Shown piece after piece: positions 46,067-50,668 of a stretch of 64,000 nt of DNA; positions within the stretch are counted from its first letter, which is position 1, and every line of letters begins with the position of its first letter. The position numbers and the translations under genes were made by a program. Where the stretch lies: positions 1-64,000 of the IMG/VR virus record IMGVR_UViG_3300027387_000003. One strand, given 5' to 3'. The notes beneath the pieces are model-generated. The model made no database searches. It was not told the DNA's origin and saw only the letters and a program-made list of their open reading frames with translations. The stretch comes from a virus.

Positions 46067-46343
46067 AAACTGCGCGGGCCATTGTTGGACCTGGGCGCGT
46101 AAAGATTTAGACTGGGTTACAGAAGAGGGTAAGCACTTTAAAGGTATGTATGTGGTCTGGCGTTGTGGTCACTGCATGAAGATGGGCCAGATTTTATTTG
46201 AGTACGATGCGGTAGAGCACGAGAAGCGAATACAAGGTTCTCAGCAAGGGTTTGCTAGAGTTCACGGTAGAGGTAAGTGCCCTGCTCAGAAGTATGGTGC
46301 AAAGCCAGCACCTAAGAAGAAGGAGTATAGCTATGACTTTTAA
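46053..46343 (+). CDS. hypothetical Cys/His protein
   Basis: ORF bridging neighbours; C/H residues. Confidence 0.5.
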   Translation: MSYDKNCAGHCWTWARKDLDWVTEEGKHFKGMYVVWRCGHCMKMGQILFEYDAVEHEKRIQGSQQGFARVHGRGKCPAQKYGAKPAPKKKEYSYDF

Positions 46344-47925
46344 GGGGACTTTACTTCCTTATCAGCCAGAGGCTGTAGACCGCATGGTTGAACGTCACAA
46401 GGTGCTAGTGGCCTATGACCTAGGCCTTGGTAAAACTGTTATTACTATTGCAGCCATAGAACGTTTGATGGATGAGAACAAAGTTACAGAGCCAGGTCTT
46501 ATAATCTGCTTATCCTCATTAAAATACCAGTGGGCTAATCAGATTGAGAAATTTACCGATGGAACTTCTAAAGCTTTGGTCATTGATGGAACGCCAAAGA
46601 AGCGGGCAGCCCAATACGCAGAAGCTATGGACTGGAGGAATTCAGGGGTTGATTACATCATTCTTAACTACGAGCAAGTTGTTAACGACTGGGATACCAT
46701 CAAGGACCTACCACGAGGATTCGTTGTCCTTGACGAAGCCACAGCTATTAAGTCTTTCAAGTCCAAACGTTCCCGAGCAGTAAAGAAGCTAATCAATGCT
46801 AAATATAGATATGCACTCACTGGTACTCCGATTGAAAATGGTAAGCCTGAAGAGTTGTACAGCATTATGCAATTTGTTGACGCCAGCGTACTTGGTCGGT
46901 TTGACATCTTTGACGCTGCTTTTATTGTAAGAAACTCTTGGGGAGCACCTCAGTATTACCGCAACCTTTCTACCCTACACACAAGGATGAAGGAAGTCTG
47001 CGTACGTAAGGCGCAGAAAGACCCAGATGTGTCGCCTTATCTACCTGACACCATCCATAAAGACCCTATAAAAATTGTCTTTGATAGAGCATGCTCAAAG
47101 TTATACACACGCATCTCACAAGATTTGTTAGCGGACCTTGATGAAGCTCAAGACTTGTTTGGTTCTAACTTCAACGTAATGGCGCACTACGGCATGGAGT
47201 CCACACGTGGTGGGCCACAGGATGAGATGCGTGGAAAAATTATGTCTAAGATTGGAGCATTAAAAATGCTCTGCTCACACCCAGAGTTATTAAAGAGTAG
47301 CGCTGCAAAGTTTAAACTAATGTCAGGAGAGGGTTCTGCTTATGTCACTGAACTGGTTGATGGGGGTCTTCTTGATAGTGTTGGTAACTCGCCTAAGCTT
47401 GACTATCTTACTCAGTATGTTAAGGACTTCTTGGACCAGAATCAGGAAAACAAAGTAGTCATATTTGCTACCTACGTAGACATGCTTGACAAGATTGCCG
47501 AGGCTCTAGGGCCAGAGCAGTGCCGACTATACTCAGGGAAACTAGATGCTAAAACTAAAGAAGATAACAAAGTTGCTTTTAATAGCGACCCTACTGTTCG
47601 TGTTCTTATTTCTTCCGATGCTGGCGGTTATGGTGTAGACCTACCTGCAGCTAACATGCTGATTAACTATGACCTACCGTGGTCATCAGGTACCGCCACA
47701 CAGCGTAACGGACGTATTAAGAGAGCCTCATCAACTTGGCCCTCTATCGTAATTCAAGATATAGTTATCGCAGGGTCCATTGAAGAACGTCAATGGGAAG
47801 CCCTACAACAAAAGAGTTCTATTGCTAACGCTATTATTGATGGCGAAGGAGTAGATGATGATGAAACTAAGGTGTCAATGTCTGTAGGAAGCCTAAAGTC
47901 CTTCCTTCAGTCATCTAACGTCTAG
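46333..47925 (+). CDS. SNF2-family helicase
   Basis: 'LLPYQ', 'DLGLGKT', 'LDEA', 'LTGTP', 'GVDL', 'QRNGRIKR'; AGGAG RBS before ATG 46333. Confidence 0.9.
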   Translation: MTFKGTLLPYQPEAVDRMVERHKVLVAYDLGLGKTVITIAAIERLMDENKVTEPGLIICLSSLKYQWANQIEKFTDGTSKALVIDGTPKKRAAQYAEAMDWRNSGVDYIILNYEQVVNDWDTIKDLPRGFVVLDEATAIKSFKSKRSRAVKKLINAKYRYALTGTPIENGKPEELYSIMQFVDASVLGRFDIFDAAFIVRNSWGAPQYYRNLSTLHTRMKEVCVRKAQKDPDVSPYLPDTIHKDPIKIVFDRACSKLYTRISQDLLADLDEAQDLFGSNFNVMAHYGMESTRGGPQDEMRGKIMSKIGALKMLCSHPELLKSSAAKFKLMSGEGSAYVTELVDGGLLDSVGNSPKLDYLTQYVKDFLDQNQENKVVIFATYVDMLDKIAEALGPEQCRLYSGKLDAKTKEDNKVAFNSDPTVRVLISSDAGGYGVDLPAANMLINYDLPWSSGTATQRNGRIKRASSTWPSIVIQDIVIAGSIEERQWEALQQKSSIANAIIDGEGVDDDETKVSMSVGSLKSFLQSSNV

Positions 47926-47998
47926 TGCCCCATAGCTCAGTTGGCAGAGCATCGCACTGTTAATGCGAGTGTCCCTGGTTCGAGTCCAGGTGGGGCAG
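47926..47998 (+). tRNA. tRNA-Asn (GUU)
   Basis: Cloverleaf: TGCCCCA/TGGGGCA acceptor; TCGCA-CTGTTAA-TGCGA anticodon arm; CCTGG-TTCGAGT-CCAGG T arm. Confidence 0.95.
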
Positions 47999-48002
47999 CA
48001 AT

Positions 48003-48078
48003 GCGGTTGTAGCTCAGTTGGTAGAGCGGCACCTTGCCAAGGTGCAGGTCGCGAGTTCGAGCCTCGTCAACCGCTCCA
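48003..48078 (+). tRNA. tRNA-Gly (GCC), encoded CCA
   Basis: GCGGTTG/CAACCGC acceptor; CTTGCCAAG anticodon region; TTCGAGC T-loop; CCA 48076-48078. Confidence 0.95.
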
Positions 48079-48079
48079 T

Positions 48080-48132
48080 TCCCCATTCGTCTAATGGCAG
48101 GATTAGAACCTACTTTAGCGGTACGAGTCCTT
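48080..48132 (+). pseudogene. 5' remnant of a disrupted tRNA (Gln/Glu-type)
   Basis: TCCCCAT-TC-GTCTAATGGCAGGAT gives acceptor 5' strand and D arm; anticodon arm absent or degenerate; ends in CGAGTCCTT. Confidence 0.75.
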
Positions 48133-48154
48133 AATATAGGTATACCCTTAAGGC

Positions 48155-48634
48155 ATGAAACCTTGTTCCAGATGTGGCAAAGATAAACCACTAGAAAGCT
48201 ATAACAAAAAACGAGTCAACAAAGACGGTTCTATTGGTTATCAGCCTTATTGTAAAGAGTGTCAAAAGTCCTGGTACTCCAAGTACTACCACACTGACCC
48301 TGCTGAAAAAGCTAGGCTATATAACAGAAATAAGACTAATCGCCTAGCTCTTAGGGATTTGGTTAATAAAGCTAAAGACAAACCTTGCGCTGATTGTGGG
48401 GTTCAATATCCTTATTATGTTATGCAGTTTGACCATTTGGACCGCAGTCAAAAAAGTTTCACCATCTCAACCGCCTCTAGAAATGGAACTACCTTAGCTC
48501 GTATGGTTGAAGAGATATCTAAATGTGATGTAGTATGCGCTAATTGCCACATGGAAAGAACATTCGGGCATTTAAACCCAATGGCAGATGGTGTAACTGG
48601 CAACACGCCTGGCTCTGGACCAGGAGACTTCTAG
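48155..48634 (+). CDS. HNH homing endonuclease with N-terminal Zn-finger
   Basis: CSRC...CKEC; 'PCADCG...MQFDH...KCDVVCANCH'; leaderless (TACCCT-N6-ATG). Confidence 0.9.
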   Translation: MKPCSRCGKDKPLESYNKKRVNKDGSIGYQPYCKECQKSWYSKYYHTDPAEKARLYNRNKTNRLALRDLVNKAKDKPCADCGVQYPYYVMQFDHLDRSQKSFTISTASRNGTTLARMVEEISKCDVVCANCHMERTFGHLNPMADGVTGNTPGSGPGDF

Positions 48635-48655
48635 GTTCGACCCCTAGTCTGCCAG
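48582..48655 (+). tRNA. tRNA-Gln (CUG), overlapping the HNH 3' end
   Basis: TGGCAGA/TCTGCCA acceptor; CCTGG-CTCTGGA-CCAGG anticodon arm; CTAGG-TTCGACC-CCTAG T arm. Confidence 0.92.
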
Positions 48656-48658
48656 CTT

Positions 48659-48678
48659 TTCGAGTCCTTGGTGGGGAG
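48659..48678 (+). pseudogene. 3' remnant of the disrupted tRNA
   Basis: TTCGAGT-CCTTG-GTGGGGA-G = T loop, T-stem 3' strand, acceptor 3' strand pairing with TCCCCAT at 48080, discriminator. Confidence 0.75.
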
Positions 48679-48683
48679 CGTTT

Positions 48684-48715
48684 ACACCCAACACCTATTG
48701 TTGGGTGTGTACACT
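48684..48715 (+). promoter_or_regulatory. palindromic operator adjacent to a leaderless -10 element
   Basis: ACACCCAACA-CCTAT-TGTTGGGTGT perfect 10-bp inverted repeat, then TACACT-N6-ATG. Confidence 0.55.
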
Positions 48716-48721
48716 TATACA

Positions 48722-48868
48722 ATGCCTAACGCACCTAAGACTCCGACGCGTACCATCCGCGTATCAGACCAGCTATGGACTGCTGTCCAGAAGAAAGCTG
48801 CAGCTGAAAAGATTACGGTTACCAGCATTATCATTGATGCTTTAGAAACCTATATTAAAGAAGACTAA
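48722..48868 (+). CDS. ribbon-helix-helix DNA-binding protein
   Basis: 'TPTRTIRVSDQLWTAVQKKAAAEKITVTSIIIDAL' Arc/CopG-like pattern. Confidence 0.8.
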   Translation: MPNAPKTPTRTIRVSDQLWTAVQKKAAAEKITVTSIIIDALETYIKED

Positions 48869-48872
48869 TCAA

Positions 48873-49016
48873 ATGGGAAAACACCACGATAAGATTGCTA
48901 AGGCTTTAGAACAACGCCAGGCAGCTACTCCTAACGGAGCTGGCTACAAGAAGCCAGGCTCTATGAATAAAAAGAAAACAGGTTTTAGAGGACATCGCGC
49001 TAAGGGTGCTAAATAA
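48873..49016 (+). CDS. small basic hypothetical protein (not in ORF track)
   Basis: MGKHHDKIAKALEQRQAATPNGAGYKKPGSMNKKKTGFRGHRAKGAK*. Confidence 0.55.
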   Translation: MGKHHDKIAKALEQRQAATPNGAGYKKPGSMNKKKTGFRGHRAKGAK

Positions 49017-49017
49017 C

Positions 49018-49046
49018 TTGACAGCCTTCTAGGCATCCATTAAGTT
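49018..49046 (+). promoter_or_regulatory. sigma-A/70 type promoter
   Basis: TTGACA-N17-TAAGTT upstream of the SSB/PolA block. Confidence 0.75.
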
Positions 49047-49077
49047 CTGTCCTAACAACCTAAACGTTAGGAAACTT

Positions 49078-49470
49078 ATGAATCAAGATGCCGTAGTAGA
49101 AGATGTAAAACAGTTTACAGTTCTCAAAGACCAGATTACACAACTGACAGAACGTCAGACAATTATTAAAAAGCGCCTCACTGAAACTATTGATGAGTTT
49201 GGTGTAGAAGACGAAAAAGGTCACATTGTTCTTAACTACAATGAAGACCAGCAGATAATGAAGCAACGTCGTGTATCTAAAAACCTAGACCTTGCTGCTG
49301 CAGAAATTATTCTTAACAAAAAAGGTATTAAAGATACCTGTATTAAAATGATTCCCACCCTTGATGAATCAGCAATCATGGCTGCGTTTTATAACGGTCA
49401 CTTGTCAGAAGAAGACATTGATACTATGTTCCCATCTAAGGTAAGTTACGCGTTCATCGTAGGGAAGTAA
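49078..49470 (+). CDS. hypothetical protein (coiled-coil N-terminus)
   Basis: ORF after consensus promoter. Confidence 0.65.
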   Translation: MNQDAVVEDVKQFTVLKDQITQLTERQTIIKKRLTETIDEFGVEDEKGHIVLNYNEDQQIMKQRRVSKNLDLAAAEIILNKKGIKDTCIKMIPTLDESAIMAAFYNGHLSEEDIDTMFPSKVSYAFIVGK

Positions 49471-49926
49471 ATGACCGATAAGATTGACAACTTCTTATCT
49501 GATTTGGATGAGTACTATCCAAACAGTAAGCGCAAGCGTCGCGTAAAAGAAGAGAAGGTAAATAAAAAAGATTCTGATTGGACAATCAATCCAATTAAGA
49601 AGACGTTACCTAATGGTAGGGACATGGAGTTCTACACCATTGGTGCGTTAGCGGTAGCGTTAGGTCGCCCACTTGTTACTATCCGTTACTGGATGAAAGA
49701 GGGTTATCTACCTGCTCCCTCTTATCGCTTAGGTGATAAGAAAGATGCCACGGGAAAGGAAATCAAAGGCCGTAGGTTATACTCACGGTCCCAGATTGAC
49801 GCAGCAGTTACGTTGTTTGGAAAGGCTGGCGCCCTAGATAAAACTAGGATAAAGTGGCCCAACCAGCAATTGACTGATGCAATTGCAGAGGCGTGGAGTA
49901 ACATCCGCGCAGAAGAAACTAAATAA
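49471..49926 (+). CDS. MerR-like HTH DNA-binding protein
   Basis: 'YTIGALAVALGRPLVTIRYWMKEGYLP....R....GRRLYS'. Confidence 0.75.
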   Translation: MTDKIDNFLSDLDEYYPNSKRKRRVKEEKVNKKDSDWTINPIKKTLPNGRDMEFYTIGALAVALGRPLVTIRYWMKEGYLPAPSYRLGDKKDATGKEIKGRRLYSRSQIDAAVTLFGKAGALDKTRIKWPNQQLTDAIAEAWSNIRAEETK

Positions 49927-49950
49927 AAACCACTAAAACAAAGGAAACAA

Positions 49951-50616
49951 ATGGCTATCAATAGAACAGATGAATACATGCCTGCTACTGATGACTTTAC
50001 AATCGACGCAGTTGTCGAGGGTCGTCCAGAGCAAGCAACATCTTCAGCAGTACAATCAGGTTGGGATGCAGCAGATAAGCTCTCAACTTCTTCAGGTGAC
50101 TTTCCAACAGAGTTTAAGTTCACTGATGGTGAGTTCACAGTAATTAAGTTCATCGACCAAAACGGTCCTTTTGCAATTTACAAGCAACACTTCCTACAGC
50201 AAAAAACTGTTGGTAAGCGTTCATACGTTTCTCTTGGGGCTAACGACCCATTGTGCACAAAGCTTGGCAGCAAGCCTGAAGACAAGCGAGCATTTACAAT
50301 TGCCGTTATTACACCCTCAGGTGTACAACGTCAGATGCTAATTGCAAGCCCACGTTTGTATAAGACACTTCACTCTGCAGAGTTTTCACCACAAGGTCCA
50401 TTGACCAAGAACTACTGGGCAATCAGCCGTACAGGCAAGATGCAACAGACTGTTTACAACCTTAACTCAATCAAGCCACGCGACCTCCTAGAAGACTGGG
50501 GCATTGATGAGAAGATGGCAGAAGATGGCGTAGCAGCTATCAAGCCTTTCGAGCGCTCTGTAATTAAGGAGCACACTTGGGAAGAGCTTGAAGAAATTGC
50601 CAACTCCCTTCTCTAA
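49951..50616 (+). CDS. single-stranded DNA-binding protein (gp32-like)
   Basis: Position before PolA; 'Y.QHF', 'DPLC', 'YWAISRTG....T.Y'; acidic termini. Confidence 0.65.
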   Translation: MAINRTDEYMPATDDFTIDAVVEGRPEQATSSAVQSGWDAADKLSTSSGDFPTEFKFTDGEFTVIKFIDQNGPFAIYKQHFLQQKTVGKRSYVSLGANDPLCTKLGSKPEDKRAFTIAVITPSGVQRQMLIASPRLYKTLHSAEFSPQGPLTKNYWAISRTGKMQQTVYNLNSIKPRDLLEDWGIDEKMAEDGVAAIKPFERSVIKEHTWEELEEIANSLL

Positions 50617-50627
50617 TTTCTAGTAGT

Positions 50628-50668
50628 AGGCTGGGGGCAACACGTGCTAAGACCCCCAGCCTTCTTCT
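50628..50668 (+). terminator. hairpin / putative terminator
   Basis: AGGCTGGGGG...CCCCCAGCCT-TCTTCT. Confidence 0.55.

Follow-up and report, generated by a model that had tools for sequence, protein, structure and literature searches.

An HNH endonuclease gene joined to a spare tRNA-Gln within a resident tRNA-Gln gene of an uncultured phage: a candidate cut-and-replace homing cassette

Background

Homing endonucleases usually spare the gene that hosts them, being carried by a self-splicing intron or an intein or being positioned beside the gene. The subject of this report is a 559-bp cassette of a virus genome, in which a free-standing HNH endonuclease gene and a complete tRNA-Gln(CUG) gene take the place of the middle of another tRNA-Gln(CUG) gene. 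The cassette occupies positions 48100-48658 of the window, which is the whole stretch of 64,000 nucleotides analysed here (positions 1 to 64,000 of IMG/VR record IMGVR_UViG_3300027387_000003). The source record is an 80.6-kb metagenome-assembled contig of an uncultured virus. An earlier sequence-only reading of the window had proposed that a homing-endonuclease cassette splits a tRNA gene at this place and carries its own replacement. All features of the window described below are on the plus strand.

The nearest published system is SegB of phages T4 and T6. SegB is encoded by a free-standing gene in the phage tRNA cluster and has tRNA genes as its targets. It recognises the T-loop motif GGTTCRANTCC and drives the inheritance of the neighbouring donor tRNA genes, with loss of the recipient markers (PMC2330249). 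The end of the segB open reading frame (ORF) abuts a tRNA gene, and processing of tRNA-Arg separates the stop codon from the ORF, for which a down-regulating effect has been proposed (PMC2330249). The breaks made by SegB are repaired via microhomology between the tRNA 5' region and the segB 3' region (PMC13096335). The locus in the window resembles SegB in these respects, and differs from it in others. SegB is a GIY-YIG enzyme and lies between intact tRNA genes, whereas the nuclease of the window is an HNH enzyme and its cassette lies inside one tRNA gene, together with a spare tRNA of the same anticodon. Stubs of the target gene flanking a unit of nuclease and spare tRNA are not described in the accessible text of the SegB papers (PMC2330249, PMC13096335). 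By analogy, the element of the window would be SegB-like in its action while standing outside the SegB family.

HNH genes have also been found in tRNA clusters. Phage T5 carries ORFs of HNH-type site-specific endonucleases in its tRNA gene cluster, and it has been suggested for them, too, that processing of the primary transcript reduces expression; tRNA stubs or a paired tRNA of the same anticodon are not mentioned for them in the accessible part of the paper that cites them (PMC2330249). For mycobacteria and their phages, HNH genes in tRNA clusters have been put forward as likely movers of tRNA genes (PMC6582537, PMC6409571). T4 MobE and the Seg enzymes share with the window a nuclease gene that adjoins its target, a donor thought to be resistant and co-conversion tracts of variable length, but their targets are protein-coding genes, repair is homologous and no scars are left (PMC2790892). 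The presumed target in the window, by contrast, is an RNA gene of 72 nt, and its first repair would have been non-homologous. In the 'fractured genes' a nuclease gene likewise lies inside a host gene without an intron and the function of that gene is otherwise preserved. There, however, the halves are rescued by split-intein protein trans-splicing (PMC2677866), whereas in the window the old gene no longer works and a complete substitute is present. No description of a tRNA gene split by a unit of nuclease and spare tRNA was found in the full-text literature, a search that does not cover subscription journals.

The occupied and the empty site

In the window, an intact tRNA-Gly(GCC) gene (48003-48078; ARAGORN; Rfam 69.3 bits) is followed by the 5' remnant of the resident tRNA-Gln(CUG), TCCCCATTCGTCTAATGGCAGGA (48080-48102), which comprises the acceptor 5' strand and most of the D arm. 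The cassette leader of 52 bp, read from the sequence, extends over 48103-48154. It is followed by the ORF of the HNH (His-Me finger) endonuclease of 159 amino acids (48155-48634), recognised by PHROG profiles and conserved motif columns, and by the cargo, a complete tRNA-Gln(CUG) of the 'TGGCAGA type' (48582-48656; ARAGORN; Rfam 56.4 bits, E 2.5e-11). The ORF and the cargo tRNA overlap by 53 nt, so that the final ~17 codons of the nuclease are cargo tRNA sequence and the stop codon TAG (48632-48634) lies inside the tRNA. The T residues of the right junction (48657-48658), placed by alignment of the window with the related loci L003, L030 and L037, precede the 3' remnant of the resident gene (48659-48679), consisting of the T loop, the 3' side of the T stem, the acceptor 3' strand and the discriminator. 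The acceptor strands of the two stubs, TCCCCAT and GTGGGGA, still pair at 7/7 positions with one G-U. Inspection of the sequence, ARAGORN and Rfam bear out the sequence-only reading as to the positions of the tRNAs, stubs and ORF, and as to the cargo being a complete tRNA-Gln(CUG) of very different sequence.

The state of the site before the event is represented among relatives, which were collected by means of the neighbouring helicase gene (592 related stretches in IMG/VR, 80 loci fetched). A tRNA-Gln is present at the locus in 40 of the 80, and in 29 of these 40 it is intact and directly follows the preceding tRNA, which is tRNA-Gly in all except L036. The spacing between the two is 1 nt in 28 of the intact loci and 47 nt in one, and the 29 intact genes start with TCCCC, TCTCC or TCCCA. 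The most informative relative is L003. It has zero differences from the window over 46420-48099 (~1.7 kb) and over 48659-50658 (2.0 kb), and has in between an intact 72-nt tRNA-Gln(CUG) (L003:2134-2205), 1 nt after tRNA-Gly. The first 20 nt of this gene are the 5' piece of the window and its last 21 nt are the 3' piece (21/21 bases). The 5' piece is identical to L003 at 20/20 positions and to the L086 and L085 alleles at 23/23, and homology to L003 restarts at 48659, so the surviving stubs measure 20-23 nt at the 5' end and 21 nt at the 3' end. The locus is polymorphic for presence and absence of the cassette, L003 being an empty site with identical flanks.

Both fragments are the ends of one gene, as had been proposed, and relatives without the HNH gene carry at this place the intact tRNA with the 5' and 3' ends that had been predicted. 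Its anticodon, which cannot be read from the stubs, is CUG. The swap is therefore like for like: resident and cargo are both tRNA-Gln(CUG). The claim of an insertion that splits the tRNA gene needs a correction. The gene is disrupted, but by replacement rather than by plain insertion: the window lacks the central 31 nt of the L003 tRNA-Gln, from the 3' side of the D stem through the anticodon arm and the variable loop to the 5' side of the T stem, and has the 559 bp of 48100-48658 in their place. Similarly, the 9-bp repeat CGAGTCCTT said to bracket the insert is present (48124-48132 and 48661-48669), but its left copy lies 21-24 nt within the insert and does not bracket it. Given this position inside the insert, the repeat is not a target-site duplication.

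Islands and prophages of the integrase type also use tRNA genes as landing sites and keep the tRNA function; these elements have an integrase and att repeats, and what they rebuild of the tRNA is its 3' end only. The insert of the window has 559 bp, has no integrase and supplies a complete, unrelated tRNA. Its sole ORF is the nuclease, and the 9-bp repeat is away from its left edge. A group I intron fits no better, the anticodon arm being among the 31 absent nucleotides. Rfam (cmscan, 47850-48800, at a permissive threshold, a search that does not report internal tRNA fragments) matched tRNAs only and no intron family. The nuclease ORF has its own start and no in-frame fusion to a host protein. 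The proposal of an element with neither integrase nor intron is thus upheld.

The cargo tRNA

In sequence, the cargo and the resident tRNA-Gln are not particularly alike. The cargo matches the resident tRNA of L037-L040 at 74/74 bases, with one extra T in the cargo, and a tRNA of the TGGCAGA type is the sole tRNA-Gln of L037-L040 and of L030-L035. This distribution points to the spare tRNA having been drawn from the gene pool of the same phage group.

In L030-L035 and L037-L040, a cobalamin adenosyltransferase gene (PF01923, E ~1e-56; L030:5750-6359, L037:4836-5444) is located between tRNA-Gly and tRNA-Gln. Its ORF, like the HNH ORF, has no stop codon of its own and runs into the TGGCAGA-type tRNA-Gln. 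An auxiliary metabolic gene is thereby fused to the same tRNA 5' boundary.

The two tRNAs of the window locus differ in their acceptors. The cargo (48582-48656) has U1-A72, G2-C71, G3-C70 and G73, and the resident (L003:2134-2205) has a tRNA-Glu-like acceptor and D arm with C2-G71 and C3-G70. Judged by the identity elements of Escherichia coli glutaminyl-tRNA synthetase, the two might be charged by different routes.

The nuclease

The HNH assignment made from the sequence is supported by PHROG profile matches and by the presence of all conserved motif columns. The ORF matches the phage HNH families phrog_2255 (E 3e-32) and phrog_3106 (E 3.6e-27). The motif CxxC, D-H, N, CxxC-H is complete; C78, C81, D93, H94, N130 and C128 are invariant, and C131 and H132 nearly so, in an alignment with 13 short-form relatives, of which only two reach PF01844 (E 7e-4). 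GIY-YIG families are absent from the Pfam and PHROG matches, the nuclease matches being all of the HNH or endonuclease VII types.

The AlphaFold model of the protein has a pLDDT (predicted local distance difference test) of 80 overall and shows an N-terminal zinc ribbon followed by a domain that can be aligned with HNH nucleases. Residues 146-159, the tail read from the tRNA, fall below 50 and are predicted to be disordered. In VIA-align comparisons, residues 66-145 align with the Gme HNH nicking endonuclease (Z 5.1, root-mean-square deviation 2.9, 62 residues), and residues 1-41 with the N-terminal zinc ribbon domain of Hpy99I (Z 6.5, root-mean-square deviation 0.8). Further matches, at Z 3-4, are Cap5, T4 endonuclease VII, the Cas9 HNH domain and McrA. 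In kind, these matches agree with the beta-beta-alpha-metal fold of HNH nucleases, though at middling Z-scores. A search of PDB sequences with the family profile gave nothing meaningful, and Foldseek against PDB gave no match at E 0.001 or better, the top weak rows being HNH nucleases.

The nuclease gene is present in a single copy in the 80.6-kb record. JGI metagenome contigs contain the same cassette and, besides it, relatives that are at most 64% identical over part of the protein and at most 46% over most of it. A nucleotide search with 47900-48760 against 50,697 phage records returned generic tRNA matches only and no relative.

Recurrence of the design

Among at least 600 matched stretches of IMG/VR, the nuclease has at least 587 confirmed relatives, of which 80 further loci were fetched, and about 35 distinct nuclease loci are in tRNA clusters. 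In many of them the ORF has no stop codon of its own and ends 9-14 nt into the downstream tRNA, at a TAG or TAA of the D arm; across the family the junction of ORF and tRNA falls precisely at tRNA position 1. A covariance model built for tRNA positions 1-43, i.e. the 5' half, detected orphan 5' halves whose ends lie 15-44 nt ahead of the start of the nuclease gene in L107 (E 4.6e-6), L137, L146, L123, L093, L153, L152, L159 and L120. In 51 nuclease loci (143 kb) with few or no ARAGORN tRNAs, the same model gave no hit at this position. BLAST and inspection added further loci with remnants, namely those of the window type, L090, L100, L113, L133 and L115.

In 12 of the 12 readable loci the anticodon of the remnant, some remnants being degenerate or partial, is that of the complete tRNA that abuts the end of the ORF, whereas two random tRNAs of these loci would match by chance with a probability of 0.033 per locus. 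The matching anticodons are Gly UCC (L107, L152), Asn GUU (L146), Arg ACG (L120, L153, L133), Pro UGG (L100), Pro CGG (L113), Lys CUU (L159), Gln UUG (L090, L115) and Gln CUG (the window). The survey suggested by the sequence-only reading thus gave the expected layout, an orphan 5' piece before the nuclease and a complete tRNA of the same anticodon after it, in unrelated phages and with other types of tRNA. The full architecture is seen in L153, where a 3' stub with CCA is also present and its ACGACGC is complementary to the GCGTCGT of the 5' piece; in L137 the 3' tRNA half is lost.

Most remnants end right after the anticodon stem, which places the probable site of cutting or insertion near the variable loop; the shorter stubs of the window would then be due to extra resection. 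In two loci the nuclease lies in the variable loop of a tRNA that has both halves intact, with perfectly complementary acceptor strands and no spare tRNA nearby: L093:1414-1925 in tRNA-Arg(UCG) and L123:1141-1640 in tRNA-Asn(GUU). The stop codon of the nuclease ORF is within the T stem in both.

The 5'-half model also reported tRNA-like starts that overlap the ORF end by 9-14 nt where ARAGORN made no tRNA call (L117:1567-1650, Arg UCU; L124:1603-1680, Gly UCC; L182:1458-1535, Gly UCC). Atypical spare tRNAs that the standard finder overlooked are the probable explanation. Streptomyces phage Spilled, a cultured relative, was considered as a model of the full design and rejected: it has an HNH gene after tRNA-Arg(ACG) in a tRNA cluster, but no spare tRNA.

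Movement and coexistence of alleles

The cassette is 100% identical in four IMG/VR contigs, the window, L083, L082 and L084, and is found in at least three flank combinations within one phage population. The window and L083 have zero differences over 46109-48671 and diverge by 20-35% from 48672 on. The left flank of L083 is 99.2% identical to L003 and 88.8% to L008. On the right, L083 and L008, a phage whose TCTCCC-type tRNA-Gln is intact, are 100% identical over 1498 bp, starting from the T loop of that tRNA. The switch of L083 at 48672, from window- and L003-like to L008-like sequence, indicates a crossover within TCGAGTCCTTGG, the first ~12 nt of the 3' stub (about 48660-48671). This breakpoint is common to L083, L082 and L084, and the stubs of all three no longer pair (TCCCCAT versus GGGGAGA). 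L082 in addition has the L008-type GAT marker in the spacer between tRNA-Asn and tRNA-Gly. In the window, G48100 is the allele of L086 and L043 and not that of L003, which hints that the window is not the site of the first insertion.

Twenty sequencing runs of 2017 contain the locus. Independently assembled Logan contigs from four runs of 2017 cover the cassette with 0-3 differences across 48049-48679. Runs X1 and X20 contain both a cassette contig (0 differences in X1) and a contig that leads from tRNA-Gly into an intact TCTCCC-type tRNA-Gln. The depths of the occupied and intact contigs in X1 are 22.7 and 27.3, and both types of right flank are present in that run. Occupied and empty alleles coexist, in at least two lineages. 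The contig depths of X1 hint that the cassette also occurs on an L008-like left flank, contigs being unable to show linkage across shared k-mers. Coexistence of alleles is what homing predicts, and ordinary recombination could also shuffle the flanks.

Two further rearrangements were noted in this cluster. L082, on the reverse strand, has between tRNA-Gly and the stub a private, near-perfect palindrome or hairpin of 42 nt, ATTGACAC...GTGTCAAT, which was not found in any other fetched locus. In L029 about 260 nt (L029:5659-5919) are inserted between tRNA-Asn and tRNA-Gly.

Leader and expression signals

A leaderless promoter of its own had been proposed for the nuclease gene, a claim for which the window gives only weak backing. 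In 13 of 60 relatives with an ATG start, the distance from the end of a TATAAT-like box to the start codon is 5-7 nt, which supports leaderless transcription in the nuclease family, but the window itself has only TATACC 8 nt before the ATG, and a sigma-70 consensus scan found no promoter before the ORF. The leader contains two -10-like hexamers, TATAGG (48135-48140) and TATACC (48141-48146), and no usable Shine-Dalgarno spacing. A regular-expression search for the leader motif elsewhere in the window gave only a loose likeness to the region upstream of the Arc-like repressor gene, so the motif is not a repeated phage promoter. The likeness is between the nuclease leader GTATACCCTTAAGGC-ATG (48140-48157) and GTACACTTATACA-ATG. 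The ATG of the Arc-like repressor directly follows GTACACTTATACA (48707-48724), TATAAT stands 6 nt before the ATG in relatives, and this gene also looks leaderless.

By eye, L153, L093 and L120 have GTTCRA-like motifs in the interval that separates the 5' remnant from the start of the nuclease gene. The possibility that 48103-48132 is the decayed rest of the deleted tRNA segment was examined and, for the first 18 nt, rejected, as these match at only 5/18 positions by eye.

Neighbouring features

The cluster is preceded by an SNF2-family helicase gene (46252-47925; Pfam SNF2-rel_dom E 5e-36, Helicase_C E 4.6e-20), which is followed by an intact tRNA-Asn(GUU) (47926-47999; ARAGORN; Rfam 68 bits). 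An inverted-repeat hairpin 3' of the tRNA cluster (48684-48708) is found in the same form after the intact tRNA-Gln of empty-site relatives, and is for this reason assigned to the host phage and not to the cassette. The Arc-like repressor gene (48722-48868; phrog_6506, E 8.5e-15) forms the right flank.

Proposed mechanism and alternatives

We consider it likely that the cassette is a free-standing HNH homing endonuclease gene that moves with the adjoining tRNA gene by intronless homing and leaves scars of the recipient gene. An event made by the nuclease is favoured because the layout recurs in 12/12 readable loci, the breakpoints are at the stubs and the catalytic residues are conserved. According to this proposal, the nuclease would cut a resident-type tRNA-Gln gene, probably close to the variable loop, the place of insertion in most relatives. 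Resection would follow, and the break would be repaired by copying a donor in which the nuclease gene lies directly upstream of a divergent tRNA-Gln allele. The donor tRNA would be the donor allele of the target gene, presumably uncuttable, as in intronless homing. The two alleles would be too different for a homologous crossover, and the first event would have been sealed by microhomology, so that both ends of the old gene would be left as scars. One or both ends may have been joined in this way; the T residues at the right junction can be assigned to the donor (GC-TTT) or to the remnant, a shared stretch of only 1-3 nt. Later spread, as in L083 and L082, would have taken place by homologous repair with the stubs and flanks as arms. 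The phage retains a tRNA-Gln(CUG), and the cost of occupying the gene would therefore be low. Because the ORF stop lies inside the tRNA, processing of the cargo tRNA by RNase P would, by analogy with segB, cut the nuclease mRNA 53 nt before the stop and lower its expression.

Several observations weigh against this reading. The ORF of the window reaches no Pfam family at E 0.01, including PF01844, and the structural matches are middling (Z 5-6.5). No donor was found in IMG/VR and JGI metagenomes, where the next relatives of the nuclease are 45-47% identical. The tRNA-Asn of the same cluster has an identical T loop, GGTTCGAGTCC, and is undisrupted, so the T loop alone cannot be the target. The leader is of no traced origin and has no homology to the deleted tRNA segment. 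The left copy of the 9-bp repeat is part of a 13-mer of the leader, GGTACGAGTCCTT (48120-48132), which is within no tRNA and matches the T loop and T stem of the resident (GGTTCGAGTCCTT) at 12/13 positions; it may be left over from an earlier junction, or the nuclease may bind its own promoter there. For L082, a single-nucleotide polymorphism is all that marks the left flank as L008-like, and the mosaicism of the flanks could stem from ordinary phage recombination. As all copies of the cassette are identical, nothing can be said about selection on the ORF.

The alternative that survives best is that ordinary illegitimate and homologous recombination, in a tRNA cluster prone to it, produced the arrangement, the HNH gene being a passenger, or having another role, rather than the maker of the break. 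We regard this as improbable. In its favour, the phage group is highly mosaic, with flanks that diverge by 7-35% between contigs, cleavage by the nuclease is a prediction, and the cobalamin adenosyltransferase gene sits in the same place with the same fusion to the same type of tRNA-Gln, with no nuclease involved. Chance recombination does not readily account, however, for a layout found in every readable locus with nucleases that are 35-65% identical and tRNAs of six amino-acid types, for breakpoints exactly at the tRNA stubs, or for the conservation of the catalytic residues.

It is far less probable that the state of the window is ancestral and that L003 owes its intact tRNA to a subsequent loss of the cassette. 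Presence and absence alone do not give a direction, and the occupied and empty genomes are otherwise identical. Excision, however, cannot recreate the 31 nt that the window lacks, and intact genes are the majority across diverged relatives (29/40). For the window, a still functional interrupted tRNA, restored by intron-like splicing or by pairing of the halves in trans, has scarcely any likelihood. In L093 and L123 the intact, complementary halves, with no spare tRNA, may form a working split tRNA, but in the window this reading is refuted by the missing anticodon arm. There, too, the ORF fills nearly all of the insert and leaves no room for a ribozyme, and no intron family matches. An assembly chimera is just as hard to credit: k-mers common to tRNA genes can mis-join metagenome contigs, but the same junctions are present in the four IMG/VR contigs, which come from different samples, and in the Logan contigs of four runs.

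Significance

The cassette is a recent and well-documented case of a nuclease joined to a spare tRNA, and is best classed as a form of intronless homing rather than as a new kind of system. It would represent a third way for a homing endonuclease to occupy a gene too small for an intron-encoded ORF, which is to destroy the gene and bring a substitute. The locus is a clean test case, having an isogenic empty site, two types of invaded allele, a crossover mapped to a 12-nt stub and coexisting alleles. The design accounts for orphan tRNA fragments in phage tRNA clusters and for a quick turnover of tRNA alleles. Such turnover is relevant to the role of phage tRNAs in countering bacterial defences that cut tRNAs, a recent finding (PMC13096335, PMC11555353, PMC11464382).

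With a probability that we put somewhat above even, phages may hold widespread 'cut-and-replace' homing cassettes, in which an HNH gene is fused head-to-tail to a spare tRNA. Such a cassette would cut the tRNA gene of the same anticodon in related phages and insert there, typically just after the anticodon stem, killing the old gene, while its own divergent tRNA would maintain the supply of the phage. If this is true, RNase P may limit the amount of the nuclease by cleaving the mRNA within the tRNA part, and the class would be a 'cleave and rescue' drive that is natural, needs no toxin and acts on RNA genes. The cassettes would then be a motor that swaps the tRNA alleles of phages, possibly to variants that escape the tRNA-cutting defences of the host.

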